DNA from: Psammoneis japonica
Lineage: Eukaryota
Length of the DNA stretch: 64,000 nucleotides
Assembly: GCA_008632985.1 (NCBI GenBank)
Contig: QPGO01000161.1
Coordinates: 62,001-126,000 of the forward strand
Reading direction: 5' to 3'
In this document: one piece after another, positions 933-56,695 of the stretch
Layout of the letters: each line of letters opens with the position of its first letter
How positions within the stretch are numbered: the first letter of the stretch is position 1
Notes under the pieces: model-generated
What the model saw: the letters and a program-made list of their open reading frames with translations, nothing else
What the model was told of the DNA's origin: nothing
Databases searched by the model: none
Program-made: the position numbers and the translations under genes

Positions 933-1067
933 TTATGGTCATATATGCAAAAGACTGCATTCCGGCTACTCGGTTGTGTAGCTCAGATGGAAAGAGCGCC
1001 GTTTCTACTCAGATGATTGCTCGGACGTAGATTCCGAGTCTTGATTCTCATTTCCACGGAGGGCGCT

Positions 1068-1270
1068 GGTTCAAGTCCAGCCACAACTTTTTTGCTCCCA
1101 CAGCAATGTTTGCAACGCCAAAACCTCTTTGCTCAAGAGGCCACCCCCATTTCTTTTGCAAACAAAAAAGTCTTGCGCTTTTGTGTGCGACCCCCAAAAA
1201 GAGGAAACTTGGCGGATGGGAGCAGGCTGCTTTTGCACACATCATGTGTGCCAACCCAGTTTTTGCTGAG
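1068..1270 (+). repeat. Dispersed repeat, probable element terminus; second diverged copy at ~4284-4560
   Basis: GGTTCAAGTCCAGCCACAA is identical at 1068-1086 and 4284-4302, followed by patchy similarity (cccacagcaa..., gcttttgcacac...tgtgccaac). The first copy coincides with the compositional boundary. Confidence 0.6.
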
Positions 1271-3646
1271 CCAGTTCAGCGACTGGATTTTTGCATCATC
1301 TGTCTGTCACAAAGAGTCCCACAGTGTGCCAGAGCATGTGTCATGCTCATTTTCATTTCCTGGGTGTGGTTTTTCAGAGTCTTGCGTGCGGCTCCTGATT
1401 GGTGCAAAATGCTCGAGCGATGACGCCCCCCTCTGTTGCGCCCAATTTTCCACACAAGCCAGCAGCCACTGAGCACTGTGGCCATGCTCTTCAATGGTCA
1501 AAATGTTGGGTTGGAGGGTTTTCATGCCTTTGAAGTTGTTTTGCACACAAAGAATGGCGCCCAACAAAGCTTTGCCAAACAAACCCAAAACGCAATGAAG
1601 CGAGCCACCAAACACAGCCATGAAAACAACAGCTCACACACAAAAGTCACTCACAAGCATTTTTTTGCTGAGAGCTCTGACTCAAGCCACGCGTGGTTGA
1701 CACAAGGCCTTCTGTGCACCCTCCCTCAGCTGTGGGAACAAGACCCAAGACTGGTCATGCTCAGCTGGGAGGGCAACTCAAAAAACAAACAAAGCACACA
1801 ACAGCTTGCAGCTTTCACACATGATGAGCAGTTGTGTGCAAAACAAATGCAAGCCAACCTTGGCCTCACTTGGAGGAGACACCAAGCTCCAACCCTGGCA
1901 GCCATCAATGGCATGTGACGCACATGTGCAGTGCACAAATGCAGTCCACAGGAGCTGCACTGTTGATTTTCAAATTTGGAGGCAGCCTCTCCAATCACCA
2001 CACCTGGCTCCTTCAGCACCTCCAGCAGCTTCCATGAAAACACACCACCACCACCACCTGTGCTTGACTGCAACAGCATGTCAACAGATGAGTCCAGCAC
2101 ACAAGAGCTGCAAACAAGTGTTTTGAAAAAAGCTCTTTCTGGGTGCAGCTGATGTGCTCCCAGTTGAGCAGTGTGTCCAGCAACTTTCTTGCCCAAACGT
2201 GTGCACCACAACCCAAAACAGAGCTCAAATTCAAGAACAGCAAGAACATTTGAGACAGGCAAAATAGAAACACACAGATTCTGGGTCCCTGGCTGAATGT
2301 GCACTCTGAGAAAATGTGTGATGTGTTGCCACGCAAGTCAGCAGAAGCAACTTGCGATTGTAAAAAATGTCCACACCATTTTCAACCATTGGATTTTACA
2401 ATGATGTGACAATGAGCGCGAACTTCTTTTGCAAAGAGGTCTCCAATGATGTGCCTTGTGTTGAGTTTGCACACTGACTCATGCAGCCATGCTGCAACCA
2501 TGTTCTCTGAACCCTCTCATGTGGCACATGATGAATTTTGTTGCTGCATCTTTCCAACCACAAGTGGCCATTTGCAGTGACTGACACATCGTTCAAATGC
2601 TCTGACAGCACCCTTTCACATGTGATGACACCTGAAAATCTAAAATTTGGCCAACATTTTGAGTGTGTGCATTTCCATTTTGCCTGCCTCATTTGTGCAA
2701 ACACCGCCAATTGTCCTGGTGGCTGCTGTCTTGACAATCCACGCCATTGTCAGCTGCGCTCACAAACTGCTCACTCACAAATCACCAGCACTTTGAGAGC
2801 AATGGACCATTGCTCCAGCAGCACACCACACAACTGGATGGTTGCACACACAAACACACACAAAATCACAACACAGCACCGCAAGATGCACACATGATGT
2901 CAGCAGCAAAAAAAAGAAGCATCAACAGGAGGATGGAGCTGACTGGCTTTGAAATTTGCACTGCAGGCAGAGACATGTGCCCTTTTTTTCATGTGTTGCT
3001 GGCTTTTGAACTTTTGTGCTGCTTGCATCACCTTCAGAGAGGGCATTGGGAGCTTCAGGAAATGTTGAGAAAATGTTTTTCTTCTGTTTTTCATGATTGT
3101 TTGCTGTGCAAGGGGGGGCAGAGAATGCCTTGATGTTTTTGGGAAGAAATCCACACAACGATGGGCACTGCACCACCTCAAATTTTTGTGCTGAAAACAT
3201 CCACTGTCAAAAGTTAAGAGTGAAAATCACAAAATTGTGTGACTGTCAACAGATCAATGCGCTGTCAATGGAGCAGTTTCTGCTGCCATTCTGTCAAGCA
3301 AGAAGAACGTCACAGTTGCTTCAGCGCGCATCCTTTGGCTCTAAAATGAAGCATCCAACACTCTCACCAAATGATGCATTTGCTGCACAATGAACAACAG
3401 TCATTTGGGGAGTGCGCTCATCCCAAAATCACCATTGCATTTGAGCAAGGCTTTTTGCAGTGTTTGTTTTTGAACACAAGAGTCATTCACAGCCACACCC
3501 AACAGCACACAAAAACAAGAACCATCAGCACCACAATCAAAGCTGTGCACAACAATGATGACAATCATCAACATTTCTCAAAAATGCAGTTTGCCATCTG
3601 CCAACTTTTCATGTTTGCAATCTTCAACATGCGTGACAAACACAAA

Positions 3647-9600: not shown

Positions 9601-10632
9601 TTTTGACGCCCTTGTCTGAAAGTGTTCAACATGAAACAGCGCCATTGAGTCCACTCAATCAGCTTGCTCAGTCATTTGTGTGTTGGAAAGATCTGTTTCA
9701 TTGACCCCATGCATCAAACTTTTGGGCAACACATCAAGACCTGGTGCAGAATCTGTTGAAAGCAACCGATTTGTTTTTGCATGAAAAAGGCCACAGTTCA
9801 ATGTTTGCTTCAAGAAACATGTTGTGCAGACCTCACATTGTTGGTCATTGCCAACTCTTAAGTCACAAAAGCAAAGCACAGGTCTTGCAGCATTCAAACT
9901 TTTGTTGCTGGCTTGCAAGCATGCTTTGCATCACAAAAAAGAAGCAAAATCTGATTTGTCAAACTGTGAATTCTCTCAACAAACAATGGCACAAACAAGT
10001 GGAAGATTTCATCAAATTGTGCACACTCATGAGGACAAACAAAAAACACCCCCAAGGTCAATGCCCCTTTGTGGCCATCAGAGGCCGCAACACAGTGTTG
10101 TTCACTTTCCTTTGGAAAATTTGGAACATTTAATTTGACAAATGTGCGCCATTGTTGGTGACAGTTCTTTTTTTTTTTGACACTCAATTTACATTCATTG
10201 TTGCCGTTTTATGTTGGCAATTGTTGCCGTTGTGTTTTGCTTTTAAGTCACCAAAGAATTTCAATGAGCTCTTCATTGTTGAGTGATGCTTTTTGTTTTG
10301 ATTAATTTTTCACATGTTTGTGGAAACGTTAACTTTGACATTGCTTTTCAATGGCTTCACCGCAGCCTTGCGTCACCACAGACAATGGCATTTCTCCCTC
10401 GCCCCAGTCGGCCACGCAATTGCCCAGAGAGGAACACCAGCTCATCATTTCCACCTGCGCGCTCCAGTTGTCCAGTCAATCTGCCCCCACCTGCATTTTG
10501 GTGCCTTTTCTACATGCGCAGTTCTCTGCCCATTTCATGACAGTGCACCCTCTCCCCAAAATGCTTTTGAAGAGAGGGTGCACTGTTGTGAATCCTGTGC
10601 ATTCTACGTGAATCGGCAACTGACTGTTGGCC

Positions 10633-11556
10633 ATGGCGTCTGACGACTTTACCCCGTCTGACGACGAGGTTGACCCTGACCCTTCTTTCCAAATTACCAA
10701 GGACTCAAATTTTGATGAAATGGAACATTTCACCAATGGTTTCGGATTCGAATTGTTCCAACCCAAGCTCAAAAGCACAGTTGCAATGCGTGCCTCGAAA
10801 AAGAAGTTTTTGGAGTCAACAAATTGGACCCCCTCTCCAGAATTCCTTGCTCTTCCCTTCCTTTGTCACAAGCCGAAGTTGCGCCGTGTTCCTTGTGTTG
10901 CCGAAGTCATCCGCACCAACAATGTTGTAAGGAAAACCCTTGGCTGTCCCGACATTTGGTCCTGCATCATGACTCGTGGTTGGTCCATTAAGAAATCCCG
11001 TCGTGTGAAAGGCGAATGTGTCCTGCGACATAAAAATCTCGAGGAGGCTCTGCATTTCTCCAAAATGTCTGGAGAGACAGAAAAAGAACAGCAGAACCGC
11101 GTGCTTCTTCACCGCAACATCCAGGCGATGGTAGAATTTGTTTGTGCGATCATTGCCAGAGACGACCCAAATGATCCTTTATCCGGCAAGCCTTGTTTCC
11201 GATTTTTACGGTGCAAAAGTCTCCAAAGTTTGATCAACAATCGAGCCCAAGACCTCCACAGTGCCTGTTTTGTCACTGACATCGTCATGCGTTACGTTCA
11301 GCACAAGCCCAAGGACATGGACTGTTGGTTCTTGAAGATTTTCCGTCACGTCAAAACCCAAAAGGAATGGCGCCTCTTTGTCAACAGCTTTCTGGTTGTG
11401 TGCAACACTGATGATCCTGGCGCCCAGGTGGGTGAGATCAAGGGGTTCCTTGACGACTCAACCGGCAACACAAAGAACACGGTGACAATGCAAGGCAATT
11501 CCCTTGCACGCCGTGAGGCTCATGAAGAAAAAAATCAATTCCATGTTGAATCATGA
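10633..11556 (+). pseudogene. Element A ORF1, unknown transposon-associated protein (TpA-eroded)
   Basis: ~308-aa ORF just inside the left TIR. Homologues at 5744-6625 and 55349-55502 (minus). Confidence 0.65.
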
Positions 11557-11568
11557 ATTTGGGAAGCA

Positions 11569-14500
11569 TTGTCCCAAGGAGCAAATTGGCACCCGACCTG
11601 GGTGCAGCAAGCAGCTCACAATGCTCCGTTGCAGAATGCGTGGTCAGAGGGCCAACTGCTTGGAAGACGACAACAAATGAATCTGCAACTCCAAACCCAA
11701 ACGCAAAATTGGGAGGACCCGCAAGGATGGCACCTGTTTGCACGATGGCAAGAAACCCCCCTCACCTCCCACCTTCTGCCTTTCCGCCTGTGTCTGTCGT
11801 CTCAATGTCTCTTCTCACACCCCATGATTGTTCACGACCCACCAGAGCCTTCCTTGACCGTTCCCAACAAGAAGGCCAAGCCTGCATCTCGCAATGAACA
11901 AGCCCCTCCATCGCTTTCTGGCAATGTTCCGTCATCTGGGGAGGCGCACCGGACTCTCACCGCCGACCTTCCGTCACTCTCAGAAATTGTGGAAAACCTA
12001 AAACCTGCTTCTACCTCCAAAGGTCCTTCGTCCAAACCTCATTCCTCTCCTCCTTCTGTTTCAGCTGATCCTCCCGCGGTTACGTCTCCTCCCAGTGACC
12101 CTGACGACATGTCGTGGCTTGACCTGTCCACACTCCGTGATCGCTTTGACCCGTCCAAGTGTCGACCCGTCACCACCGAGGAAGTTTCTTCTCATTTGTC
12201 ACACCTGCACATCATTGACAAAGCCACCGACACTGATCAGGTGCTTCATCATTCCGCCACCGACTTTTGCCTGGCGGACAACTTGCGGGAAAACTGGCAC
12301 ACGTTCTCAAACAATGCGCCATCATGTGATTCCACCACCGCATCTCGTGTTCGAACGGAGCACCCTCCTGACCTTGATCACTTCTCTGAGGAACTCTCCG
12401 TCGCCCGTCAGGCTAACTCTCTGTACAAAGGGCACTTCGGGTGCCTTCGTGCATGCATTCCTGCCCTTCTTCCACTTGTTTTGTTGAAGGGAGAGTCCGA
12501 TTTGACACGTGACGGACCGGTTGCAGTTCAAAACGGCGAAGCACGCAGGATAAAGTTCGGTTGTGCTGGGAGAGCGCATCACCCCAAGACGCCTGGTTCT
12601 GCCAAACAGGCCAAACCAAAGGCCACTTACGGACTTGTTGTCTTTGAGCCCGATGACAACTTTGACGCCAACGAGACCTCCAAAATCAAGGTGATGGCAG
12701 CCGACATCCTTGACTCGATTCAGCTTTGCGAAAATGAGGTAGAGCTGAAAAAACTGAGCAATCCACCACCATTTAACTGGTCCCTTCGGTGCGAGGAACA
12801 CTTGCAAAAGTTGGGCAACGAAATGGGCTGTCCATTCTTCAAACGTGAGGACGTCACCATGCAGGGATTGTGCATTTCCCGGGGTCAAGACTGTGATGGT
12901 CACCGTGACAATAAAAACTGCATCTGGCGTTGACACAGGAAGACAGCTGCAGGTTGCTTCTTTGTCATGGATGCCTTTGGCAACATCTGGTCCTTCAAGG
13001 TTGTCACCAACAGCAGAGCCACCATTGGTGAATGCTGCGACGACCAGTGCGACATGAAGCCCATGCTTGCTCGCATGCACCACAATCAAGCTCAGCTTGA
13101 TTTCGCACTTAAAGACTTGGACTTGCAGCACGATGGTCCCACCCACCCCGATGTGTCTCTTTCCAGCATTGCATTCAAGCATCTTTCCCTTGACGACAAC
13201 AGGCCGTGGGACAATGTTCTCATTGGTGGAGGTGGCGACTCTTCACATGTCGAGGTGCACATGGATCGACTCAAGTTCCCGACTTTCCCAGTCAGGGACT
13301 TCCACTTGTCTGCCCCAGTCACAGTGATCTGCCGTTTCAAGAACATTGTGTGCCGATCGGGTCCCGACCCAAAACGAGTCATTCGTTTGGCGATCCATGC
13401 TGGCTGTCCCACCGGATGTCACCGATTTTACTGTGTGGGGGACAAGCATCTTCCTGACCTTTGTTGCGAAGGTGCTGACCCGTTTGTCAACTTTGCCGAT
13501 TGCTTGCAGAACACATTTGGGGTGCCACACGGTGACCCACAGGTGGGTGGGATCAGCCCTGCCAATTTGACTTACGAGAAATTTTGCGATGCATTTCTAG
13601 ACCCTTGTCACGTCGGAACCGCGAATGACCTGATTGACGCAATGGTGGAAGAAATCTGTGCTGCACTTCTCTGGATAAACAACAATGTCGACACCAACGA
13701 GTTCTGTCCCAACTTAATGGAACAACGGTGCAAGGCAGCGTGTGATGCTTGGGCAGACCGGGGAGCAGATCTCAGTGAGATTCGTCTCATGTTGGTGCTG
13801 CAATGTCTGGTGCTGGCAGGTGTGGCAGTGAAAGACCATCCAAGACTCAACGACATCATCTGTCCTGTCTTCAATTCGGGAGCTGCCGCACAACTGGGGC
13901 ACATCCAACCGGAAGAAAGGCCGCTCATGCACCAAAGGATGTCATCCGAAACAGGAACCGAAGAGCACGGTTGGAACGGAACCGAGCACAAACTTTGTGA
14001 GAATTCAGACAATCGCTGCACCTGCGTTTTTGATTGTGTTTTCCAAGGACCCTGTTCAGGACAAGACCTGTTTACCTTCTCTCCCTCTGGCCAGCATCTC
14101 CGCAAGCCATGTGGGTCAACCGAGTGTGAAATTTTGGAGTGTGTTGATGACGACCCCAACCTTTGCCAATCACAAGACAATGCTGAATCGCACACATTTG
14201 TGCGTGAATCAGCCGTGCAATCAGATGGTGCCAGTGTTTTCTCTGTTGTTGATGGACCACCCGCGGACAATGAACTTAGCTCATTGTCATCGGAGGAGTC
14301 TAGACTCACCGCAAACAATGAACTTAGATCATTGTCTTTGGAGGATTGTCGACTTGACGCGGAGAAAGAACTAAGTTCATTGGATTCGGAGGAGTCTCGA
14401 CTCGCCGCAGACAATGAACTCAGCTCATTGTCTTTGGAGGAGTCTGTGTTGTCGGAGGACTGCTCGTGTCCTGATTCTGACTGCCGCGTTCCAATTGTCA

Positions 14501-14805
14501 CGGTAGATTCTGTCATCCTTCAGTTGCAGGATCAAGAATCCGATGAAGATGATGCAAGTAACGCAACCGTGCACGATCGACCCGAGCCACCGGTCCTTTC
14601 ACAAGTGCAAGATTTTGACATGGACAAACATGTGAGTGCCATTTTTGCGCAAGTCTGTCAACAGCCGAAGAACTCCTACAATTGTTTGGTGTCATGTTTT
14701 TCACAAATCTCAATCCGCAACATGACTCCTCCTGTGCTTTTGTTTCACATTGTCATGTCATCCCCAGTCAAGACGGAGGTGCAAATGTCCTGTGGCTTTG
14801 CATGA
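11569..14805 (+). pseudogene. Element A ORF2: large protein with HxDxKN motif and E-x-x-LCE helical region; candidate DNA-modifying enzyme
   Basis: ORFs 11569-12933 and 12967-14805 are in the same frame, separated by one TGA. Ser/Pro-rich N-terminus, DCDGHRDNKNC at ~12890-12921, NSGAAAQL...TEHKLCE at 13873-14001. The function call is inference. Confidence 0.6.
14262..14445 (+). repeat. Coding tandem repeat, 48-bp (16-aa) unit x~4
   Basis: Units start at 14262, 14310, 14358, 14406 (ADNELSSLSxEESRL). Confidence 0.9.
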
Positions 14806-40064: not shown

Positions 40065-40067
<3 letters not shown>

Positions 40068-40132: not shown

Positions 40133-40136
<4 letters not shown>

Positions 40137-40670: not shown

Positions 40671-40739
40671 TGGCCAAAATTGGCATGGCAAACAAATGAC
40701 CCCTGTTTGCAATTCGACAGGACAAAGCTGGGAGGGGGG

Positions 40740-42489: not shown

Positions 42490-42717
42490 GTGGCTGCCTT
42501 GATGGGCGCTGAAACTGGCTTTGGAGAGCAGACGAATTTCTTGGTTGCAAGCAAATTGCTGTTTTTGACATTGTCCAGTTGCCACCGGCTGACAAGGTTG
42601 GTGTGTTGAAGGCCATCCACACCATGGAACGCTCATCCATCTGGCATGTGCGCGGCAGGTGTGCACAATGGCAAGCAACTCCCCATTGCTTTGATTCTTG
42701 AAAAACCAGCTCAAATG
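42490..42717 (-). pseudogene. 3' piece of an older Plavaka transposase, continuing from 56064-56420
   Basis: WFFKNQSNGELLAIVHTC and LQHTNLVSRWQLDNVKNSNL match CFFQRESDGDLHAVVHPC and MQHTDLVSRCQLDQVKNNNL of 15713-16696. Confidence 0.8.
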
Positions 42718-43465
42718 CTTGGTTTGGTTTTGCCGTGTTTTTGAACAAAATTCCCCGGGATCACCACCTTTTACCCTGTTTTTCTACGGAAAGGGTGAAT
42801 TCCCGGGGAATCGACACGAGTTGCCCTTCGTTGCATGCATGCTTGGTGCACGAATGAAGAATTGCACATCGGCAATTCCCCGTGCTTCCCCTCTCATACA
42901 TTTCCACGTGTTCTGCGTGCCGGCACGTGCGGAGCCACACATCAGACATCAGAACTGAAATCAACAATCGCAACAAAAATGGGCAACATGCCATGGAGCG
43001 GCTTGCACCCCATTTGTGACGGCTTTTGTCCAACAATGATGACACCAGTCAATCCAGTGAACAACATTGCGATCGACAGCATAAAACACAAAATGAATGG
43101 AAGCTTGACAGACCATTTTTAGAAAAAAATGGTGCATTGACAGATCGTTGCACTCATTCTTTTGTCGTGCGGTCACAAGTGCAAGCCATGTGGTGTCTGC
43201 AGCAAAATCCAAGGCAAAAGCAGAGCTGTCCATGGCAAACAAAAATGTGGCGGATTGAATGGTCTTGCTTGTTTTTCCAGTCGACACATCTCATGTTCAG
43301 AATGAAGCGGATCATTTAGAATCACTGTTGTCGTCCAGCTACAAATGCAAACCATGAGGCATCTAAAGTGAAGGCTCAGGCAAAAGCAGAACCTCGCCAG
43401 GCTAAAAAAAACATGTCAGATTGATCATTCATGCTCATTCTTTCCTTTGAACTGTCTCATTTGTC

Positions 43466-43744
43466 TGCCGAGTGTCACGGTCATCAATGTTCATTCGTGG
43501 ATGTCAGCATGGTGTCAAAAGTGTCAAAAGGATGTCAACGATGACACTTTCTAGAAACCTCTTCTCTTTTCTTGATGCATCTCGATGCCTCTCAAAAGAT
43601 TGTTTCTTTGTGTTTCTGCGCAGTTTCTCAGCATTGATTCTGCCAGATTTCGGAGTGGCCGAATCTCTTTCATTTCTTCTCACAACATTGGCAACAGTCC
43701 ACTTTACAACGCCATTTTGTGCAACTGCTTGGCGCCACTTGGCA
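43466..43744 (+). repeat. 5' LTR
   Basis: TGCCGAGTG...CACTTGGCA; direct repeat of 47923-48214. Confidence 0.95.
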
Positions 43745-43786
43745 CAGCAAATTCACTCCCAAACACTTGTCCATCTCTCTCAAGAC

Positions 43787-44912
43787 ATGTCTGCCGACCA
43801 CATTGTCCTGACCAGACATGTCAGCAGAAAACTGCCCAATCGAACTTGAGCGTCCTGATCACTCTGAAGAAGAGCAACGCAAAGACCAGTTTGTGTCTTT
43901 TGAAAGCCCCGTTGATCCTGACGATCCAGATGGGCTTGAAACTGCAATCAAGGTGCAAAAGCTGGCTTTGACTGAACCGGAAGATGTTCTTGCCTTCTGG
44001 TCAAACTTCGACGAACTTGTCGATGACCTCGGAACGGCTGAAGGACAGTCACGTTTCCGACTTGTGACCAGACTCATGACCGGAACACCAAAAGACGACT
44101 GGGAAATCATCGCAAACGAATGCGAAAACCGCGACCAAGACACATTCAACACTTGTCGCAAAGAATTCCAACTCCAGTGCACGCACAGAGAAATTGCCCT
44201 TGATGCCAAGGAATGGCTTCAAAGTCTTGAGAAGCCCAGAAACCAATCTGTCAAGTCATTTGTTGATGACATCCGTCGCTTTAATGAGTTGATTGGTGTC
44301 ATGCCTGCACCATCCGAAGACGATGACGAAAGGGTTCCGTCATTCACGGAAGCGGAATTGTCCGTGATCCTTCAAAAATGTGGACCCAGATCATGGGCCG
44401 AAACTCAGACCAAGGCTTGACTTCGCAACTTGGGCTTGAACGACCAAGCTCAATGCCACGAGAGTCTCCGATGCATGGAACAACATGGTGACAAAAGATC
44501 TGCCGACAACAACAGACGCAACAACAACCGGAATCGACGCAACAACGGTCAAAATGCGCGTCGTGGCCAGAATGACAACCAAAATTGCGACACCAGGAAC
44601 AAGAACCAAAACAACCATGGACAACCGTGTCCGATCCATGGCGTTGTACATCCAAATGGTCAAGAGTGCAATGTCACCCGTCGTGAACATGAAAATTACA
44701 AGCGGAATCATGCAAATTGGAGTGTGCCGAATCAACAAAATGACTCTCAAAGCAAACCAACACATGGCCATCCAACACGGAGTCGCACACGGAACGTCAA
44801 AAACAACAATGTGGACTCCAGAGCCAATCGCTCTGCTTCAAATGACACCGATGGCATCGTGTCAGACGACATCAACGATGTTTTTTTAAGACGTCACGTC
44901 TCTCCCAGATGA
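43787..44912 (+). pseudogene. gypsy gag-like gene
   Basis: Helical gag-like ORF after the 5' LTR, Asn/Arg-rich linker and CPIHGVVH...C knuckle-like motif. Internal TGA at 44418. Confidence 0.75.
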
Positions 44913-44929
44913 TCCCACTGAATCCGAGG

Positions 44930-47901
44930 TAAAAGACAACCTTGCCACGGAAGCGCGTGTCCAGATGATCGACACTCATTCTGGAATGCATGAGTTCCGC
45001 GTTGCTTTGCTCGACACCGGCGCAAATCGCAACTTTGTGAAGCACTCAGCCCTTCATGGAATTCCTCACAAAATCTGTAAATGTGACATTCCCGTTAAAG
45101 GCCGTTGCAGCACCATCGACCTGCGCGAGATTGCGACGCTGACGTTGAAGTTTCCAGACTTCGCATCATCCAAGAAGGTTTCCGTCGATGCTCATGTAGA
45201 AGACAAAGCCACAGGAAAACACGACATCATCATCAGAAGAAAAACCGCCACAGAAATGGGACTCGTTTTTTATTTTCGACATCAAACAATCACGTGGGAC
45301 GACGTTGCCCCATCCATGTGATCCAAGGGCTCTTTTGACCAAGTCGAGGTCAATGCAGTTCATCCCGGCGATGCTGAATTGCCCAAGTTCTTCCAGAACA
45401 CCGTCAACCGTCAGATTTGAGGTGTGATGAGCAATGCTTGCAACAAACACAATTGTTGTGACATGGTCTTACACTGCAAACACCTTGATGATGATCAGCA
45501 GCACCAACTCATCAAACTCTTCGGACGACATCCGCAATCATTTGATGGTGCGCTTGGAGCTGCACCAGGAAAACCCGTTCATTTGACCCTGAAACCAGGA
45601 TCACGTCCATGCTGCATGAAAGCCTGCACCACTCCGCAGGCGTCACATCCCATGGCTTGTAAAGAAGTGGACAAATTGGAAAAAATTGATGTCATTGCAT
45701 AAAAACTCCATTCTCCATGGGGAGCACCCTGTCTTTTCCGATCAAAGAAAAGCGGTGGCATCCGTTTCTCACCCGACTTGCAAAAGCTCAACGAGTGTCT
45801 TGAACGGCATCCATGTCCGCCACCTGTTGTCGACGACGTCGCATGGAAAATGAACGGATTTACCTTTGCAACTTGTCTGGACCTGAATCAAGGTTGCTGT
45901 CACTTCGTGCTCGATGACGAATCAAAAAAACTCTGCGGTGTCATCCTGCCGTGGGGCAAGCATTGCTGCAACCGCCTGCCACAAGGAATCAAACCAGCAA
46001 GCGATGTTTTTCAAGCCTGCATGACAGATGTTTTTCATGACATGGAAGACATCATGGTCTGCATTGACAATGTCATCCTCTTTGCCAAGAACGACTTCAA
46101 TCATCACTGCCAATGACTTGAACTTGTCTTGCAGCGGCTCCTCGCGAACAATCTTCATGTGCATGTTGAAGAATCATGTCTCGCCGCCAAGACCGTCAAC
46201 TGCTCAGGCTGCACCATGACTGCGAAAGGCGTTCAACCTCAGAAAAAGAAAATCCTGCCTTTGCTTTGCTTCGCTCGCCCTCAGAACCGTCGACAATTGC
46301 GTGGTTTCATCGGGTTCGTGAATTGTCACAAGAAATTGTGGCACCGACGCAGCCACACTCTCATGCCCTTAACTGCGCTGTCATTGGACAAAGTCAAATT
46401 CAAGTGGACTGACGTCCACGCCGAAGCCTTCAACCAGATGAAGAAAATTGTGGCGCGCGAAATCCTCCTCCGATTCCCCGACTTCTCTCGACCTTTCAAG
46501 ATCTATCCGGATGCGAGTGATTGTCAACTTGGTGCAGTGATTGCTCAAGATTTTGATGATGGCGAATGGCCAATTGCATTCTACAGCCAAAAATTGTCTC
46601 TGGCACAGCGAAACTACACGACGATGGAAAAAGAACTGCTGTCGCTCGTCGAGATGACCGAAAATTTCAAGAGCATCCTTTTTGGCCATTGATGCTGCCT
46701 TTTCACCAATCAAAAGAACCTTGCATTCGACAAATTCAAGTCAGAGCACATCAAACGCTGGCGTTTGCTTCTCGAAGAGTGTGATTGCTCTTTCGAGTGC
46801 TTGTCAGGCCACAAGAATGTTGTGGCCAATTTTTTGAGTCGCTGTCCCATTGTCCAAGTCGATCAAAGCGACTGTGAGGAAATGACTTCATTGGAAATCA
46901 ATCCTTCGACATTCTCTGTCACTTTCGACATTGTCGCCGACCATCAGAAAAAAGATTCTGCTCTCCAGCAGCGACTCGACAAGTCCGAAACCCACTCAGC
47001 CGAACCACTCAACAAAAAGCAGATTGTCCTTCGCAAGGACAAGATTGTCCTCCCTCCAACGCTTTTTCCTGCAGTCCTACGTTGGTGTCATGAAACTCTC
47101 TGTCATCCTGGTGCCAATCGCACCTGTCAAACCTTGGCTTCACATTTTTACATCCGTGACATGCAGATGAAAGTCCGCACTTTTGTCCATCAGTGCCGCG
47201 TGTGTTCCAAATCCAAGCGCATTGCAGCAAACTACGGTGAGCTGCCTCTCCCAGATGCTGTCTACAAGCCTTGGCAAGCAACTCAAGTCAATCTTTTCGG
47301 TCCCTGGGCATGTGCCGATAAGAATGGCATTGATCGCAAAATCAGAGCCGTTTCGATTGTTGATGTTGCAACCCACTGGATTGAACTCGCAAACCACAAG
47401 TCCAAAACGTCCGAAGACATTTCACTTGTGGTCGATCGCGAGTGGTTTTGTCGCCATCCGCGACCAGAAATTGTCATTTGTGACAATGGCTCCGAATTCA
47501 CTTCCGAGTTTGCAGATCTCCTCTGCAGTTGTGGTGTTAAACCGAAGCCTGCAACGATCAAGAATCCTCAAGCCAATGCGTTCGTTGAACGCATTCATCA
47601 AGTCATTGCCAATTCTCTCCGTGCGATGGATCTCCCTTCTCGCGATTGTGATGAAGACACGATTCGTGGAATTTTGCAATCCGTTGCATGGGCCTTGCGC
47701 AGTGCCTGCCACACTGCCCTTGTGTCATCTCCCGGACAAATTGTCTTCGGTCGAGACATGGTCATTTCAAAACACAAACTCAACACCAAAGATGGTCCCT
47801 TCCGTGTCGCACGTGTCCACACCAATGGAACCGTTGCCATCCAGCGCTCGCCTCACGTCACCGAACGTGTCAACATCCGCCGTCTTCACCCTGTCTTCTA
47901 A
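44930..47901 (+). pseudogene. gypsy pol (protease, RT, RNase H, integrase) with stops and frameshifts
   Basis: LLDTGA; LDLNQG..H; RLPQG; (Y>C)IDN; DASD.QLGAV; RNYTTMEKELL; H..LCHPG...C..C; DNGSEF; PQANAFVERIH. Confidence 0.95.
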
Positions 47902-47922
47902 CGTCTCAATTGGGGAAGCGAG

Positions 47923-48214
47923 TGCCGAGTGTCACGGTCATCTGTGTTCATTCGTGCGTTCATTTGTGGATGTCAGCATGGTGTCAAAAGTGTCAAAAGG
48001 ATGTCAACGGCGACACTTTCTAGAAACCTCTTCTCTTTTCTCGACACATCTCGATGCCTCTCGAAAGATTGTTTCTTTGCATTTTCTGCACGGTTTCTCA
48101 GTGTTGATTCTACGAGATTTCGGAGCAGCCGAATCTCTTTCATTTCTTCTCACAACATTGGCAACAGTCTACTTTACAATGCCATTTTACACAACTGCTT
48201 GGCGCCACTTGGCA
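47923..48214 (+). repeat. 3' LTR
   Basis: Direct repeat of 43466-43744, preceded by the PPT. Confidence 0.95.
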
Positions 48215-49086
48215 TGGTCACAAATGCAAACAACAAGGGCTCTAGAGCAAAGGACAAGGCAAAAACAGAACCTCACATGAGCAATGTCAATGTGGCTGAT
48301 CTAATGGCAAAGTTTCTTCTTTCCTTGCTCTTCCACAAGGGGCTGCTTTGTGTCGATGTGTCGATGCAATCATTGTCGTTGCATCGTGTCGCGTCGCTCG
48401 CTCGAGCCTCCAGCGCTCGCTCGGTCATCATGGTGATAAAAGTGCACCCGCCTGGCTGTGTTTGCCGCACATTGCCGCACTCCATTCGTTTTTGTTCCCC
48501 TCCCCTGAGCCCTTTCAGGCGTTCCTTCCCGCAAAATTACCCTCATTTCCAGGGATTCCCCCAAAAGGGCAAGGTAACTCCCCCTCACCCTGGCCATTTT
48601 GGGGAATCCCCAAATGGGTAAAACCACATCAGAGCGCGAAATGTGGTGATCCTGACCACCCTTCTCATGGGTGATTTTTCATGCTGTTGCAGGTGTGAAT
48701 GCAAAGGTTTCATTTTGAGAGAGTTGGGTGGACCATGATTTTTTGTTGCATGTCACAGCACACCATTTTTCACTGTGGGAACCCTCCTCATCCTGTGGGA
48801 TCCCACCCTCAACCATCAGACTGCCGTCCCTTTGCACCTTTTTAAAGCGAAGTTCAAAACGTTTTGTTTGACAACAAATTGGTGGTGCTGATCATTGCGT
48901 TTCTCGGGTTTAAAGAACCTTCCATTGCAAACACTGGTTGTCAAATGAAAGGTTAGATCACACAACAATGACCCCTGAAACACTTTGTCAAACCTTGTAA
49001 CTGTTTGCATTGAAACCTGCTACATTGCTTGTCCGCTTTCCATTCTCACACTGGCAAAAGCCTCCGCTGCCTTTTCATGCCGCAGC

Positions 49087-50325
49087 TCACTCATTGCCTG
49101 CATCTGCGCTCGTTTTGCTTCCCGCATCACTGTCTTCATCCTCCTCCTCGCTGTCCTCATCTCCTCTGTTCTTGTCCGTTGCCTCTTCCTCCTTCTCCTC
49201 ATCATCACTTGAAAGCTCCATTGTTGCCTGTGTTCTTGCCTCCTTTTCCACCGGCTTTTTCTTTCTTTTTGATCCCTTGCCTCTTTCGTCACTCTTCCTT
49301 TTCTTGCCTTCACTGCACCATGTGTTGAACTGCATGCCCTCCTCACTCAACATGTCTTTCTTTGCTTCTGCAAGCAGCTCGTTGAATCGCAATGTCCCTG
49401 CATCCTTCCACGAGTCGCGTTGCCTTGACGGGTCCGTGTGCTTGGGTGTTGGTTCCGACTCTTCCTCATCCTCTTTGTCTGAGCCTCCCCCCGCTCCAAC
49501 AGTCTTGTCATGATGTGCCTTGTGCTCCCAACTCTTCCAGCAGTTTTCCAATGTCAACAGCCCCAGAGCCTCGTCGCTTGCTGCAGCCAGACCGGTTGCC
49601 TTCGTCTCACCCAACTCTGCCTTCCTTCTCCATGTCGTGGTGCTCTTTGTGAATTTCAGGATGTTTTTGTAGAACCAAGCACATGCTTCCTTGTTCTTGC
49701 GCTTGTCCTCCACAATCGTTGTCACTGTCTCCTCCTCCCAAGTTGCCAGGAACGGCTCTTCATCTTCCGTCTTTTCGTTCTTCTTCCTCTTCTTGCTCTT
49801 CTTCCCTCCTCTGCCTCTTGCTGCCGGCTTCTTCTGACTGTGAATCTCCTCGGCTTTGTTCTCTGTCAACACGACTTCAGCAAGTTAAGGCGCAGCAGTG
49901 TCAAGCACAACTGCACTCAACATGCCGTGCACCACAAAACACTTGCCAGCCGTTGCATTGTTCTTGATCGCCTGAGTGACCGTGCTCCTTTTCGCGTTAA
50001 TTGCACACATGATGCACTTCTTTGCCGAGTCTTCCCACGCTCCTGCCCAGTCTTGCTTGCTGCAATTGCCACCGTCTGTCTTTTTCCTGATGAGCCGTGA
50101 CACTTTGCCACTGCTTGCCATGTCCGCCTTGACAAGGAACTTTGCCTTCGGGAAAAGTTCCTTCCGTGCCACCTCTTCTGCCTCTCTCATCATAGACTCT
50201 TGATCCCCAGTGGCTCCCACCCGCACCAACGCCGCGGCCAGCCTTGGGCTGGTTGGTTGATCTCCAGCCACCCCCGCAGTTTCTTTCTTCTTCTTCCTTG
50301 CCATTGCCTGTGCCACTGTTGCCAA
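49087..50325 (-). pseudogene. Copy of the Plavaka accessory gene
   Basis: Near-identical protein to 21341-22575. The stop at 49885 falls within the predicted intron. Confidence 0.8.
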
Positions 50326-50779
50326 TTGTGGGTGGCTCCATGCCTTGTGTCCCCAGTTAATTTTGCCGTTGGGAAATTTTCAAACCTCTCTTTAATGCTA
50401 AAAATCTTGTGCTTTCCACCAATGATTCTCTTTTCTCAAATGCAACACAATGGAGAATTGACCAAATTTTACAATGCATGTGCAATTTATTTGTTTTGCC
50501 ACTCCTTGTCATCTTTTGAAAATTTTGAATCCCTGCGAATTCCAGTTCAAACCTCACTTTTGCTGCAATGTCAAAATCCACTTCCACAGTGTAAACAGCA
50601 TGCACAAGCATTTTGCTCAAAACATCATTGTGAAAACGTGCACCTGCAAAAGTCATTTTTACTGCAATGAACAAACCCCTCACCTGCTTCAATGACATTC
50701 CGGTTTGCTGTTGGGGCCTGAGCACATTCATCCTTTTTGGTGCCAAATCGTTTTTTCTGGTCCAATTTGTCATCTCCCT

Positions 50780-53526
50780 GGTGTCGTTCCGACAGCGGAA
50801 AACACGGGTTTGTCCACAAGAGAAGCCAAGAGACATCGTGGGCAGTGAATTGTCGACAACCAAGACAACACAGCACAAGACCGACAGTCGCATCACGGCC
50901 GAACGCTCCTTGCGAGCCGCCGCAACCTTGGTCATTCTATGCGCCGATATGATGTTTGTCGATGGGGAAGACAAAGCGTTTGAAAACGTGGTCCCAAACT
51001 TGACCACTGGTGCAAAAACCTTTCTCGACCTTGTTGAAGGCTGTCGTGGAAACAAAGCACATCCAATGAGCACTTCCCTCAACATGGGAATGGACGACAC
51101 TGGGCTTGCTGCCACAAAAGGCCCCCAACCTGGAGACCCTTTAGAATGGCGCGTTGTCACTGCCTCAGAGTAAAACTTGCCATCACAATGGTTGCTTCTG
51201 GAGAGGCCGCACCAGTCATGTTGACGTTCAAGAAGATGACGGAACGTCAACTCCCAAAAGGACACACGAAAGATGCACACAGCAATGAGGACGGTGTACA
51301 TTTAGTGGACGTGCACGGGCTGTGTCCAGGAGGTGACACGAACATTGATGTTGGCATCGGCTTTGTCCTGTTCATGAGGGACGACATTGACAAAGCTGAG
51401 CTCAAGCGCATGGTGATGCATCGCAAGTTTGTCCATTTGCCCCATGTGCAGAGACAGTGTCACAAGTTGCGAGGCCGCACGGGTGCCTCAGACCAAGTGC
51501 ACACTGAAGACGAGTGCAGCGTTCTTGTCATGGATGGTGACCGTGGACAAAAATTGATGCAAACACGGTTTCCCCAGAAGCGACGAAAATTGATGACAAA
51601 GAGAAGATGACCTCCGGCAAGACCAACCCTGCAAGGACCGGATCGAAAGCGTCTTGTGATCAAGCTGATGTCTTCAGCACTGCAAAATCCACCCTGAAGA
51701 AACAAGCCACTGCCACAGAGTGAGACATCCATTCTCACGCAAACAAGTTGGAGGCCACAAGAGCCCTGGAAAAGACTCCCCTTCAGCTGGCAAAGGACAA
51801 GGATGCAATCATCGACTCACTTGCCAAGCTTCTGTCAATCCTGACTCAGTCGTTGCAACGGAAGAAGATTCTGAAGGGATTCGTGGTCTCTGGCATCATT
51901 GACCAGAAAACTCTGCGTTGTCCTGATTTTGAATCCGTCATGTCTGCTGTCAAACGGCAAGTCTCCCAAGAAGAATGCGATCTTTGCCTCTGATCCTTCC
52001 CCACCTTGATGAAAGCATGGGATGACAATGGGGGTCACATCCCCGAAGTGGTTTTTGATGAACTCGAGTTCCCCGAGAACCGTGATCCCACCGGGAACAT
52101 GCACCGGCATGATGCCGGCATTTCACAAGAACCCCTGCAGCGTGCCAAACTTCTTAACTCTGCTGGTCAAAGGGCAGCCCGGAAGGAATGACAGGATCAC
52201 CTGCAGGCCGAGAAACAGGCAAAACTTGTCCATGAAATTGCAGCGCACAACAAAGCACATGATGAAGCTGTGGCAGCGGAGTCCAAAATGCTGGACATGA
52301 TGAGCAGCAACGAGAGTCTTCAAGTTGTGGCTGAGTCAGACGGACCAATTGTGGCACAGGCATTGATCGACATGTGCGCAAAACTTGCAGTTTCGCAGTT
52401 GCAGTCATTTGTGAATGCACGCTTCTTCCGATCAATGAAAGACAAGCCATCAAAGTTTTGTGCAAACAAGGGTGCATTGGCGGAGGCAAGGGATGAATCT
52501 GAGAATGACGAAAACTCTGGCAGGCGGCTCGACTCCCCACCGACTTCGCTCGTTCACAAGCTCATCCACTCATGCTACAAGGCTTGGCACCTTCCTGTCA
52601 TTTGTGAAAAAAAGGAACTGCCCAGTGAGACCACAGCTCCTGCTCCTGTCCTTCCAGCTGATCCTGCTGACCATGAGGTTGGGCGTCCGCTCCATGAGAA
52701 TCCGATGTGGCAAGCGAGTGCAGTCAAGGTTGCAGACGATTTCATGTCTTTTGGTCTGGAGCAAATGCAACAAACCACTCAGTCAGCTCCGATTCTGATG
52801 CAATGACTCGAGACACACAAATGTCAGTGACTCAAGAACTGTGACACTCACCGCAACCACTGGACACTCCAATGGGCAGAACAGAATCTACCACTGATGG
52901 CGGCTGTGATGGTCAGCCGTGGCCACATCCTCCCAAACATTGAGTTTCGGAGCGGCACTGCATCCTTGTTGCTCCACCCAAAGGCACAGTCTGAGAACAG
53001 CACTGGAGATCATCTCATGAAGGAAGGTGCCTGCAGATTGTGTCACTTCTGCACACCCGTTAGGTCAGGAAAGAATTCAGGTGCCAATGCAAATTTTGGA
53101 GTGCAAGACGATGAGCATCTAAAGTGCTCTGAGCTCACTGAATCAAAGCATGCCAACAATGCTCTCTGTTCCTTGCACCCATCCAAGGAAATCGATCGAG
53201 ACATGAAAGAGCAAATCAAGTCACAACAGAAAGGATGGCACGAGGATCTTGAGATGGTCATGTTCTTTGGGTGGTCACGCAGTGACAAAGACATCACAGA
53301 TTTGCTTGCCTCAGAAGGCCCTGCTGGCTTGTTCCAATGGGATGCCGAGACCTTGAAACACCTGGAAGAGTCTAAAGTCTGTGGCACTCTTTGGTCCAAG
53401 AAATTGGCGATGGTGGGTCATCTGGCTGAGCTTGCCTGCAATCTCTGTCTCGGCGAAGACAACATCTCTAATTCCCCTGGATTCAAAAGTTTCGGATTGC
53501 TTCAGATTCACTTGAACAGGACCTAG
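50780..53526 (+). pseudogene. Degenerate pogo/DDE-like transposase with a C-terminal GIY-YIG-like region, within element B
   Basis: Chain of collinear plus-strand ORF pieces: RVKLAITMVASGEAAP, VLVMDGD, KTNPARTGSKASCD (PxxTxxxQPxD-like), then GA(Y>C)...VRSGK...DEH...NISNSPGF. The family call is inference. Confidence 0.45.
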
Positions 53527-56063
53527 AGACAAATGGTGTCCCTCTGCAGCTTTGACAGCTGCTGTCTCACGCGCATTGTCCTCCAGTGCGGAGCTGTCTA
53601 CACACGGGTCAAAAAGAACAATGAACTGTGTTGGTCTCAGTGCCAAAAGGGGACACATGATGCACAACTTCTCAATCAACACTTGCCTTTTGCACCAAGT
53701 TCTAATCAAAGTGGTGGCACTCTCTGCCAGAGAGTTCATCCCATTGGCAGAGACTTCTGCGCTTGGGCCGGTGCCATCTTCATCACTGTGTGGCTTTTCA
53801 CACACTGCCGGCACCGTGCTCCCCACTTCCAGCAGAGAAATGTCTTTCCTGTGTCTTAGAACAGCAGATCGGCAAGTCATCATTCAAATGGTGCACACAC
53901 ACAATCTGCTGGGCCTGCAGCATGCACATGGTGCGTGCCATCCAGAAGCAACAGCACTTGCGGCTACACTCCATCCCACATTTTATTGAACAGCCACACA
54001 TCTCTAATCTAGAGACACTGAGCACTCCAGGATCTGATTTCCCCATGTGAGCAAAGAGTGTCAAAAGACATCGATCATGTAGAACATGGGCCTGGAAATG
54101 CCACTGCAAGCTTTAACGGTCAACGACAGTCATGCTGGAAAATGACAGGCAAAATGAAAACATGAGAGGAAAAACGCACACAGCAACAATCCGTTGGGGT
54201 TGCACAACACAGTGTGCTCACTGGGGCACCTTTTGAAGGTGGAGCTGAGTTGCCTTGCCAATTTTTATGCCCCCAAGTGCCATCAGCGGTTCGTGGCATC
54301 CGCACATTCAAGAGGAGGCAATGAGCCCGCCAACACAAGCCTCAACCTTCACATTTTGCCCATTGCAAAGCCTGGAGTCGTAGTTGCACCACAAAGATCT
54401 CCCAAAATAACGTGGACAATATAATGTCTTAGACAATGATGACAATGCGGTTGAAGGGCAGGTGGAAAGGGTCAAAAAGGACCAGATGCCTGCACGCATG
54501 ATCGAGACGCACCAAAAAAGGATCGTTGGGCAGGCAAGTTTTGTCAAAACAAGTGCAAAACTCAATCAATCACAACACACTCACAGGGTCACCTTCTTTG
54601 GACTGTGGCAAGGCTGTCTGACAAGTGCCAATGTCGTGAGCATCCCCAAGACTCTATCGCATTGTTTTGTTTACACTGCATGCACTGTCAAGAAATTGTT
54701 GTCACCGAAAAACGACATGCTGTGATTGCGAGCCGACCAAGACATCCAAAAACACATCAAGCTCGTCACAAGTCCAAATGAACAGTGCAAATAGATGTGC
54801 CAAAGGACAAAGAGTGAGATGAAGCATGAGGCTCCCAAACGGATGTGCTGTGGTGGCGCAAATGCCACGAGAAAGACACCAACATCACAGATGCAACAAT
54901 CAACCATACGAGACAATCAATCGACCTCACACGCTGCAACAAAAAACAACAATGATCTTTGGTGAACAGGAAAACAACACAAATTGAGAAAACACAAAGA
55001 GAACTTGCCATCGCGACGTTGTTGACCAATCATGCGTTACACGCACCCTGCAGCAATCGAGTCACGAGTCGAGGCACATTGCCGTTTGCACCGTGTGTCA
55101 AAACCAAAGCCCCCCAGAAAACCAAACCAATGCATCAACCTCTTCACAACAATGGCAGAAAAAGATCCCCCATGAAAGACACATCAACCCAACGATGCAT
55201 GCCATGGCAAGATGCATCAAAGTGAAACATGCCATTTTTGATGCAAAATCGGGACCGGTTGAGTCCAATCAAATGATTCGACTCTCGCACTTCACCGTGG
55301 TGAAATTTCAGTCACGGATGCCGGGACCGGTTGAGTCCTCCGGCAGCTTTGCAGTTGTGCTTTTGAGCTTGGGTTTGAATGATTCGAACCCAAAACCATT
55401 GGTGAAATGTTCCATTTCATCAAAATTGCAGTCCTTGGAAATTTGGAAAGAAGGGTCAGGGTCGACCTCGTCGTGAGACGGGGCAAAGTCGTTGGACGCC
55501 ATGGCCAACAGTCAGATGCCGATTCACGTAGAATGCACAGGAATCACAACAGCACACCCTCTTGTCAAATGCTTTTTGGGGAGAGGGTGCACTGTTGTGA
55601 AATGGGCAGAGCATTGCGCATGTAGAAAAGGCACCAAAATGCAGGTGGGGAGCTGTTGACTGGAAAACTGGTGGGTGCAGGTGGAAACAATGAGCCAAGT
55701 GCTCATGTGGCCAATTTGGGCGCAAAAGAAACACCCTTGTCTGTGGTGACGTGGTGACGCAAGGCTGCGGTGAAGCTGTTGAAAAGCACTGTCAAAGTTG
55801 ACGTTTCTGTGAACATGTGACAAATTGATCAACACAAAAAGCATTGTTCAACAATGAAAGATTTGTTGAAAGTCTTTGGCAACTTTAAATCAAAATAAAA
55901 TGGTGACAATTGCCGACATAAAAAGGCAACAACAAATTTAACTTGACTGTTAAAATTGAAACTAAATTTGCCTGACAACAACATGCTTTCATCAAATTGA
56001 ATGTTCCAAAATTTCCAAAGGAAAGTGAGCAACACCACATTGCGGCCTCTGATGCAAACCAAG

Positions 56064-56420
56064 TTCAAATTCAAGCAGGAAGATGAACATTTGCCGAGTT
56101 GCAAATGGCACCTTCCTTGTTGCAGTCTGGGTGGGGGGGCGGCATTTGTCTGCTCTGTTTTTGTTGCAGCACTCAGTTTTGCACTCCAGGATGTTTGAGG
56201 TGCGCAGAGTCTCGTCAATGCCGGTGTGCAGTCCCTCCACTTCTTGCCAACAAAGTTCAGGAGGACATGTGAACCTGACAGTGGTTTTGCTTTCAAAGCC
56301 AGCAGGAGGTGACCGCCTTGTTTGTTTCACTGCAGTGCAGAGCAAATGTGCTCCCCATAGAGTCTTCACAGTGCCATTCGTTCGCTCGCCGCTCCATCGC
56401 ATCGTCTGCCTGTCCATGTC
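56064..56420 (-). pseudogene. 5' piece of the older split Plavaka transposase C-terminal region
   Basis: GSTFALHCSETN, LLNFVGKKWRDC, CKTE, PDCNKEG..ANV match GSTFAITCSVTN, LLHFFQKKWREC, CKTE, PDCNSKG..ANV at ~16100-16350. Confidence 0.8.
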
Positions 56421-56695
56421 GTGAACTCCTCAAGAAAGAAACCCGGTTGTTGAAGTCGATTCTTCCACGCGTAGAATCCATACGAATACGTAGAATGCAC
56501 AGAAGCTTCAGTACGCTGACGCAACGCTGACGCAATCCTCATTCATCTTTTGTTCATTTTTTTTTTCTGCCATGGCGCCCTGATCAAAAAGAGCATTGAT
56601 TCCACTGCACCATGAAACAAAGCAATCTCCAAGCACATTCTATATCCAGTCACTATCCGATACGATGCATTTGTGAGTCAAGGCGACGAGTTGTT

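Follow-up and report, generated by a model that had tools for sequence, protein, structure and literature searches.

Hypermutation targeted at mobile DNA is known mainly as cytosine deamination, as in fungal repeat-induced point mutation (RIP) and the APOBEC enzymes of animals. Here we analyze one 64-kb window of a diatom genome (Psammoneis japonica, contig QPGO01000161.1 of assembly GCA_008632985.1, positions 62,001 to 126,000; coordinates below count from the first base of this window) in which the DNA derived from transposable elements (TEs) is strongly depleted of the dinucleotide TpA. The affected elements include a gypsy-type long terminal repeat (LTR) retrotransposon, a Plavaka-like transposase and a remnant of a MULE transposase. 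We describe a DNA-level, post-integration, TpA-specific transition process that follows a 5'-TAY rule (Y, pyrimidine) and is limited in this window to TE-derived DNA.

The closest described system comes from the chlorarachniophyte Bigelowiella natans. In mutation-accumulation lines, 231 of 302 nuclear mutations fell in one integrated nucleocytoplasmic large DNA virus (NCLDV) and one virophage insert; 230 of these 231 were A > G or T > C, with the GC-biased ones all on TpA, and the 324 coding sequences low in TpA showed enrichment for reverse transcriptase and DDE domains (bioRxiv 10.64898/2026.01.13.699255). Mettrop et al. propose adenine deamination and name an ADAT2-like candidate, untested there (bioRxiv 10.64898/2026.01.13.699255). 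An earlier note on the present DNA, made from its sequence alone, knew of no described system of this kind; this 2026 preprint, with its TpA to TpG/CpA hypermutation of integrated viral DNA, overturns that statement. Hypermutation at TpA is not categorically new, having been described once before, in another supergroup lineage. As far as the preprint's main text goes, the two cases share a near-exclusive A > G and T > C signature at TpA (in the window with C > T and G > A at CpG alongside), a foreign-DNA target, depletion of TpA, enrichment of CpA and TpG, and open reading frames (ORFs) left standing. They differ in host, B. natans belonging to Rhizaria and the diatom to Stramenopila, and in extent: the NCLDV and virophage inserts keep many TpA (NCLDV rho 0.45), whereas three TE classes in the window are near saturation, with TpA observed/expected ratios (O/E) of 0.03–0.18. 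That main text contains no flanking-base rule, whereas here the rule is 5'-TAY with TTAA spared; and the B. natans rate was measured in mutation-accumulation lines, whereas here only the end state is read. Full-text literature searches returned the Bigelowiella preprint as their sole match and none from diatoms; a paper on diatom DNA methyltransferases mentions RIP, in the portion of its text retrieved, only via the relationship of DNMT4 to RID (PMC9998398).

Other systems resemble the present one in part. Fungal RIP likewise makes dinucleotide-specific transitions in TE or repeat DNA, on both strands and plausibly as a defence. Its direction is opposite, however: RIP turns CpA into TpA, raising TpA through C:G to T:A changes and making stop codons, whereas here TA is removed and stops cannot be created, and RIP as such was rejected on this polarity. 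RIP also leaks into flanks, whereas the edges here are sharp to about 100 bp. Deamination of 5-methylcytosine (5mC) yields the same TG and CA products and is present in the older blocks, but it cannot remove TA. The enzymes ADAT2/ADAT3 and TadA deaminate adenine to inosine, which is read as G, and in their natural tRNA context the A that they target has a T or U directly on its 5' side (U33-A34). To our knowledge, no natural adenine deaminase has been shown anywhere to act in chromatin. ADAR and APOBEC3 are likewise deaminases that hypermutate mobile elements as a defence; ADAR acts on RNA and APOBEC makes C > T or G > A changes during reverse transcription, whereas here DNA transposons and integrated LTRs are changed.

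Over the whole window, O/E is 0.19 for TA and 0.64 for CG, against 1.55 for TG and 1.51 for CA, in agreement with the great excess of TG and CA that the earlier note had reported. In 1-kb bins, TpA O/E lies at 0.00–0.22 over 1001–30000 and 36001–56000, with a sole exception of 0.41 in the bin that holds a run of N (Table 1), and at 0.39–0.70 in the single-copy parts (1–1000, 30001–36000 and 56001–64000). The TE blocks compared (49,341 bp) contain 296 TA, a frequency of 0.0060, and the single-copy parts (14,030 bp) contain 502, a frequency of 0.0358. The longest TA-free stretch is 1652 bp, where a gap of 1000 bp would have a probability of about 2e-16 at host density. Four block borders, at ~1060–1100, 30400, 35900 and ~56400, are sharp to about 100 bp; for example, 30301–30400 holds no TA and 30401–30500 holds ten. 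The extents first proposed for the depletion, about 1060–30400 and 35900–56470 with TpA abundant elsewhere, are therefore accurate to within about 100 bp. At all four borders in this window the depletion is confined to TE DNA and the neighboring host DNA is normal.

What TA loses, TG and CA gain. The combined share of TA, TG, CA and CG (the YR dinucleotides; R, purine) stays at 0.23–0.26 throughout the window, the loss of TA, plus that of CG where present, being balanced by TG and CA, so that the coupling of TpA loss to CpA and TpG gain known from B. natans is found here as well. Relative to host DNA, the gypsy element has f(TA) lower by 0.029, f(TG+CA) higher by 0.036 and f(CG) unchanged. In the TE blocks, AA, AC, AG and AT occur at 0.87–1.06 of their single-copy frequencies, against 0.17 for TA. 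Pockets of intermediate TA density occur inside the depleted blocks at 19001–19501, 27801–28401 and 53801–54701, the densest with 7–9 TA per 300 bp against about 11 expected at host density; they may be element junctions or stretches rich in spared contexts.

The direction of change was polarized with outgroup proteins. For the pol frame of the gypsy element, translated with X at in-frame stops, we found 181 relatives, of which 120 were listed and 80 aligned as outgroup (best identity 49%). Among 18 columns with a Tyr consensus in these 80 proteins, the window protein keeps 4, carries Cys (TGY) in 10 and His (CAY) in 4, against 253 of 338 other conserved columns kept (Fisher p = 8.7e-6); conserved Cys or His columns that turned into Tyr number zero. 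Arg is kept in 21 of 26 conserved columns against 4 of 18 for Tyr, which sets the Tyr loss apart from 5mC deamination. The 99 changed conserved columns comprise 16 TA > TG and 7 TA > CA single-step changes, 3 A > G and 2 T > C off TpA, 12 changes at CpG, 9 other C > T or G > A, 22 transversions and 28 multi-step differences. Thus 23 of 28 polarized single-step A > G or T > C changes fall on TpA, the target seen in B. natans. At 25–49% identity between outgroup and window proteins, family divergence adds to decay in producing the many transversions and multi-step differences. In the same frame CG > CA outnumbers CG > TG by 11:1, which is probably a detection bias of codon structure and not a strand effect. 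In overall composition, the pol frame has 0.70% Tyr and 4.78% Cys, against 2.83–5.27% and 0.67–2.19% in the 120 listed relatives.

The two DNA transposons follow the same trend. The two Plavaka-like ORFs contain 0.30% and 0.0% Tyr, against a mean of 2.86% in 150 relatives, and of eight Tyr-consensus columns two are kept, five are Cys or His and one is Arg. Tyr makes up 0.31% of the MULE ORF against 3.17–4.29% in six relatives, and none of three Tyr-consensus columns in the N-terminal ORF is kept (two His, one Leu). A search with a 7-sequence alignment retrieved 18 Plavaka-like loci from environmental (metagenome) sequence, and TpA O/E is 0.47–0.68 in all 18, which shows that the family is not inherently TA-poor. 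By these comparisons, the direction of change is TA to TG or CA. The directional T:A to C:G process at TpA that the earlier note suggested thus draws support from outgroup polarity in three TE classes, from relatives with normal TpA and from the LTR pair described below, and the observations that could have spoken against it, as far as the data reach them, came out in its favor: relatives have normal TpA, single-copy islands are undepleted and read contigs are concordant.

The gypsy element has a CpG O/E of 0.95, as in single-copy DNA, alongside TpA 0.10, TG 1.56 and CA 1.34, whereas older blocks at 1.1–10 kb and 35.9–42.5 kb have CpG at 0.14–0.15 and TpA at 0.03–0.04. Because CpG is intact in the gypsy element while TpA is lost, and the older blocks lack both, the TpA process runs far ahead of CpG decay, the youngest element included. 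Decay of CpG, as expected from 5mC, proceeds alongside in the older blocks (CpG O/E 0.14–0.67), but as a sole cause it is ruled out by the gypsy values; together with the direction opposite to RIP, this upholds the initial separation of the process from both RIP and 5mC decay.

A similar footprint appears beyond this genome. Among Plavaka-like proteins in public metagenome sets, three clusters have 0–1 Tyr in 1127–1290 residues: P0287 (8 members), P0315 (3) and P0371 (1). Their Tyr-consensus columns hold Cys or His in 6 of 11, 6 of 9 and 7 of 9 cases, respectively. By this protein-level sign, the Tyr-loss footprint is present in other assemblies as well. A locus search with P0371 alone returned no relatives. 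Five full-length P0287 members are mutually 98.8–99.6% identical, and the members could be one locus across samples or a recently copied, yet already Tyr-free, element.

Comparisons of copies place the changes in integrated DNA. When an element inserts, both of its LTRs are copied from a single template. The gypsy LTRs now mismatch at 23 positions, and 21 of these mismatches are transitions; 19 of the 23 lie within YR/YR changes (five CA/TG doublets, six CG/(TG or CA) and three TA/(TG or CA)), and only four differences are of other kinds. As LTRs of one element differ almost only at YR dinucleotides, the hypermutation took place in DNA after integration. A rough calculation by hand, from about 4 TA-derived doublets, a similar number of sites with the same product in both LTRs, 3 half-converted sites and 2 intact TA, gives an ancestral LTR with about 13 TA per 279 bp, similar to unmutated DNA; all of the LTR TA loss can have happened in place. 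Two copies, A and B, of an unclassified repeat family differ by 41 CA/TG doublets, 20 TA/(TG or CA) and 38 CG/(TG or CA), with 191 transitions against 84 transversions in all, and a pair from a second family shows 23 CA/TG doublets. Between the window and paralogous contigs assembled from reads, 207 of 217 differences are transitions, and the 40 listed show the same YR classes. DNA transposons are hit as strongly as the retrotransposon. Runs tests found no clustering of strand choice among neighboring sites (P = 0.45–0.80), so each site seems to take its strand independently; a mechanism that moves processively along a single strand is unsupported, although saturation could hide one.

Which TA are lost depends on their flanking bases. 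Survival of TA relative to single-copy DNA is 0.017 for ATAT, 0.024 for ATAC/GTAT, 0.035 for GTAC, 0.061 for ATAG/CTAT, 0.13 for ATAA/TTAT, 0.15 for CTAC/GTAG, 0.29 for GTAA/TTAC, 0.32 for CTAG, 0.35 for CTAA/TTAG and 1.27 for TTAA. The ranking is unchanged, with values between 0.015 and 0.90, when 14 unmutated Plavaka-like loci of similar G+C serve as the reference, and the hierarchy is present in all seven TE blocks. Of the 296 TA that survive in TE blocks, 13 are RTAY, whereas single-copy DNA has 146 RTAY among its 502 TA; the 17 survivors in the two blocks with the deepest depletion include no RTAY and 11 YTAR, and the Plavaka-like transposase retains 10 TA in 3036 bp, none in RTAY context. 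A hand fit with one parameter per 3' neighbor (T 2.0, C 1.7, G 0.6 and A 0, in ln loss) reproduces all ten contexts reasonably well. Strand information agrees with a rule on the 3' side: of the YTAY tyrosine codons, 9 became Cys and 2 His, and at copy-pair sites with one TA left, the strand where A precedes a pyrimidine was hit in 10 of 14 informative cases. Combined, 19 of 25 fit the TAY rule (p = 0.007), and the changed base is accordingly the A of 5'-TAY, which on the opposite strand corresponds to the T of 5'-RTA. Sites of the palindromic type RTAY are open to attack on both strands, with 97–98% gone, while TTAA is poorly attackable on either strand and remains intact.

Public sequencing reads, assembled into contigs, bear on both base accuracy and copy number. 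All three runs come from one sample. One read contig reproduces 36280–40056 with three other letters and one gap at depth 63, and the adjoining single-copy read contig (30406–36302) has depth 56. Misreading of bases is unlikely, because a strand-split reading would break k-mers and halve the depth. This stretch is fully depleted of TpA, yet single-copy in the reads at 90% identity or above, which leaves the earlier description of the process as repeat-restricted in doubt; the 42.7–48 kb region, by comparison, is multi-copy, with summed read depth of up to about 1900. The targets may be set by TE or foreign status, or by chromatin, and not by copy number, although hypermutation itself would erase identity between copies and so blur the copy-number reading. 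Two side observations concern these data. At 32742–32787, within a single-copy island, a read contig from run X1 replaces 44 assembly bases with 11 other letters, which could be an assembly error or an allele. The low-depth run X2 matched only the island at 30.5–35.7 kb and nowhere the TE sequence, which is much more abundant; in this it resembles a transcript library, though not recorded as one, and we base no conclusion on it.

Taken together, we favor, with a probability of roughly 0.6, a post-insertion, TpA-specific A:T to G:C process on TE DNA that is enzyme-driven, most likely by an adenine deaminase. The loss of 98% at some tetranucleotides with TTAA spared, the sharp borders and a rate far above that of CpG decay point to an enzymatic process. 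After insertion, each TA in TE DNA became TG or CA; the probable agent is an enzyme directed against silenced or foreign DNA, its candidate chemistry is conversion of adenine to hypoxanthine in DNA, which would be read as G, and its role may be genome defence that kills transposases without breaking reading frames. A more specific version, in which diatoms possess an enzymatic defence by chromatin- or homology-guided deamination of adenine in double-stranded DNA at 5'-TAY, shared by ancestry with Bigelowiella and found throughout the Stramenopila, Alveolata and Rhizaria (SAR), is a tentative proposal that we think has the odds against it; such a defence would disable TEs of all classes and keep their frames open.

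Several points weigh against the favored explanation. No enzyme, modified base or guide was seen from the window, and the DNA-active amphioxus enzyme BjADAT2 has, in the part of the report available, the adenine context 5'-GAA and not TAY (PMC10354150). A mechanism centered on A and one centered on T are inseparable by sequence. The CA/TG doublets may derive from ancestral CG as well as from TA, and a two-state model predicts far fewer of them than observed from either origin. Their excess over the model implies heterogeneity among sites; the model, having under-predicted the doublets, was dropped as a test of polarity and protein outgroups were used instead. Polarity columns are few for the DNA transposons (8 for Plavaka, 3 for MULE), and the C-terminal MULE ORF keeps none of seven Tyr-consensus columns but has Cys or His in only two and other residues in five, in a poor alignment with 51 of 117 conserved columns kept. 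The sequenced sample may be the assembly's own source and hence no independent platform.

Among other explanations, the one that survives best, though we consider it unlikely, moves the chemistry to the opposite base: in TE chromatin, an enzyme would modify the thymine of 5'-RTA, for instance by oxidation of the TET/JBP type to 5-hydroxymethyluracil (5hmU) or a derivative, and the altered base would then mispair or be repaired to C. The A of TAY and the T of RTA being indistinguishable in sequence, the target rule suits this idea equally. Moreover, T in TpA is the site of 5hmU in dinoflagellates and of base J at kinetoplastid telomeres, and in fungi TET/JBP genes are carried along with KDZ/Plavaka-type transposons. 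However, 5hmU pairs with A and is weakly mutagenic, and Pfam finds no TET/JBP domain in 237 ORFs of the window. The authors of the B. natans preprint, in the text available, favor deamination (bioRxiv 10.64898/2026.01.13.699255).

We hold it distinctly improbable that the changes arose from error-prone repair synthesis in heterochromatin, of a polymerase-eta-like WA to WG type (W, A or T) triggered, for example, by mismatches from 5mC deamination. Polymerase eta makes A > G errors at WA motifs, and CpG decay is also present in the TE blocks. Such a polymerase spectrum would not confine itself to TpA, whereas AA/TT is undepleted (TE/host ratio 1.06), AG/CT is unenriched (0.97) and only 5 of the 28 A > G or T > C changes in gypsy pol lie off TpA. 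The gypsy element lost about 80% of its TA with CpG intact, and a 98% loss of RTAY with TTAA untouched is too specific for a polymerase.

Editing of adenosine to inosine in TE transcripts or double-stranded RNA by an ADAR-like or ADAT-like enzyme, fixed via reverse transcription, has very little left to recommend it. ADAR prefers G as the 3' neighbor, whereas the preference here is Y. The changes extend to two DNA transposons (MULE, Plavaka-like), the LTRs of a single insertion disagree at TA-derived sites, and both strands are changed without strand-coordinated runs. Since DNA transposons and integrated LTRs were changed, editing followed by reverse transcription is not the cause, even though A > G with a 5' U matches the classical ADAR preference, as cited in the available text of the B. 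natans preprint (bioRxiv 10.64898/2026.01.13.699255).

An artefact of sequencing, base-calling or polishing, such as a modified base at TpA read as G, has a similarly slight chance. The runs come from a single sample and their library type is not on record, which leaves it some room, but the 3.8-kb read contig matches the window at a depth close to that of its single-copy neighbor, copies and LTRs hold fixed alternative TG or CA states, and metagenome proteins from other assemblies share the tyrosine loss. Least credible of all is that these TE families are TA-poor by descent or selection without mutation in place, for which we found no supporting point: tyrosines of catalytic motifs are now Cys or His, so that the copies cannot be the active form, TpA is normal at all 18 related Plavaka-like loci, the Tyr content of outgroup gypsy, MULE and most Plavaka proteins is normal too, and the LTRs diverged at such sites after insertion.

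The features of the window are listed in Table 1. Element identities rest on Pfam scans of 237 ORFs in all (34 + 114 + 89), stop-to-stop ORFs included, and on relatives. The gypsy element matches gag (weakly), RVT_1 (below cut-off), RT_RNaseH_2, Integrase_H2C2 and rve. The Plavaka-like assignment has an atlas score of 0.93 and 661 HMMER relatives, with PF18759 in seven of eight relatives scanned (E ≤ 1e-4), five of them above the Pfam cut-off. The MULE remnant matches PF10551 at E 2.2e-9; PF10551 is also present in six relatives, four of which have PF04434 as well, and the remnant's C-terminal ORF has a SWIM-like CxC...CxH stretch as read by eye. Stop-to-stop ORFs gave only MULE at 1–30 kb and only gypsy domains at 36–56 kb. 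Of the five TE classes first named for this DNA, gypsy, MULE and Plavaka stand, while Pfam gave no support for Penelope-like or pogo-like elements in the 237 ORFs. Of three supposed host genes, one can be named, a PHYLLO-like gene, the ORFs of the 30401–35900 island being without a Pfam match.

Table 1. Features of the 64-kb window, with coordinates counted from its first base
Feature	Position	Strand	Remarks
TpA-depleted block 1, TE-remnant composite	1060–30400		174 TA in ~28.8 kb; CpG O/E 0.15–0.93 between sub-blocks
Second repeat family	10076–10794	+	81% identity to partner
Second repeat family, partner	55342–56054	-	81% identity
Plavaka-like transposase	15713–18748	-	Two consecutive ORFs, 16754–18748 and 15713–16753
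Unclassified repeat family, copy A	20926–23037	+	Self-BLAST; 83–86% identity to copy B
Unclassified repeat family, copy B	48627–50779	-	Self-BLAST
Assembly gap (N run)	27275–27726		Inside block 1
MULE transposase remnant	28115–30425	-	MULE-domain ORF 29460–30425 and C-terminal ORF 28115–29146
Single-copy island	30401–35900	+	TpA O/E 0.55, CpG O/E 0.88
Island ORFs	30313–31158, 31200–32273, 33534–35777		No Pfam match
TpA-depleted block 2, TE remnants	35900–56400		122 TA in 20.5 kb
Gypsy-type LTR retrotransposon	43466–48214	+	Pfam and two LTRs
Gypsy LTRs	43466–43744 and 47923–48214		279 and 292 bp, TG...CA ends
Gypsy pol frame	44890–47901	+	Open apart from in-frame stops
Single-copy island	56471–64000	+	TpA O/E 0.50, CpG O/E 1.08
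PHYLLO-like fused MenF-MenD-MenH-MenC gene	57421–63813	+	2130-aa intron-free frame, Pfam domains

The PHYLLO-like protein has 276 relatives, the named ones all from diatoms (Cylindrotheca, Mayamaea, Skeletonema, Thalassiosira, Epithemia and Bacillariaceae), with a best identity of 65%, in line with a diatom and not a fungal source. Its C-terminus carries a polyketide-cyclase/START-like domain, PF03364, and many diatom relatives do likewise (PF03364 or PF10604). Next to the Plavaka-like transposase are four long consecutive ORFs at 10624–15566 (+; 310, 458, 623 and 315 aa), with no Pfam match and no atlas match, ORF 12934–14805 (no usable atlas match) included; chance would not yield frames of this length, TA-poor though the DNA is, and they may belong to the Plavaka-like element as cargo genes. 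A local repeat cluster at 39900–40700 contains a perfect 54-bp inverted repeat (40374–40427 / 40630–40577), direct repeats and a simple repeat that reads (SL)n in one frame, and read contigs show many alternative joints there.

The process has consequences for how such elements are recognized and dated. Changes from TA to TG or CA cannot create stops (TAA becomes TGA or CAA, and TAG becomes TGG or CAG), which is why dead elements keep long open frames, such as the 664-aa Plavaka-like one, and why gene callers keep hypermutated ORFs; what these frames do lose, almost completely, is tyrosine, to Cys or His. Hypermutated elements with long open frames get annotated as genes. At the same time, they slip under Pfam thresholds and are under-annotated as elements by standard pipelines: the RVT_1 domain of the gypsy element (45703–46113, +) scores 21.5 bits against a cut-off of 29.6 because of its Tyr > Cys/His changes. 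Ages dated from LTR divergence would come out several-fold too high, because YR hypermutation accounts for 19 of the 23 LTR differences.

New here, relative to B. natans, are the saturation across three TE classes, the target rule and an LTR pair which proves that the process works on integrated DNA. The 5'-TAY rule with TTAA immune is a constraint that any candidate enzyme must reproduce and, if it is a DNA adenine deaminase, the responsible enzyme would interest base-editing work. Should the tentative SAR-wide defence prove true, it would be an ancient "adenine RIP", its enzyme would be the first naturally occurring deaminase of DNA adenine to work on chromatin, and the Tyr-free Plavaka ORFs of metagenomes would be its footprint in further eukaryotes. 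The diatom case suggests that TpA hypermutation is widespread among SAR protists.

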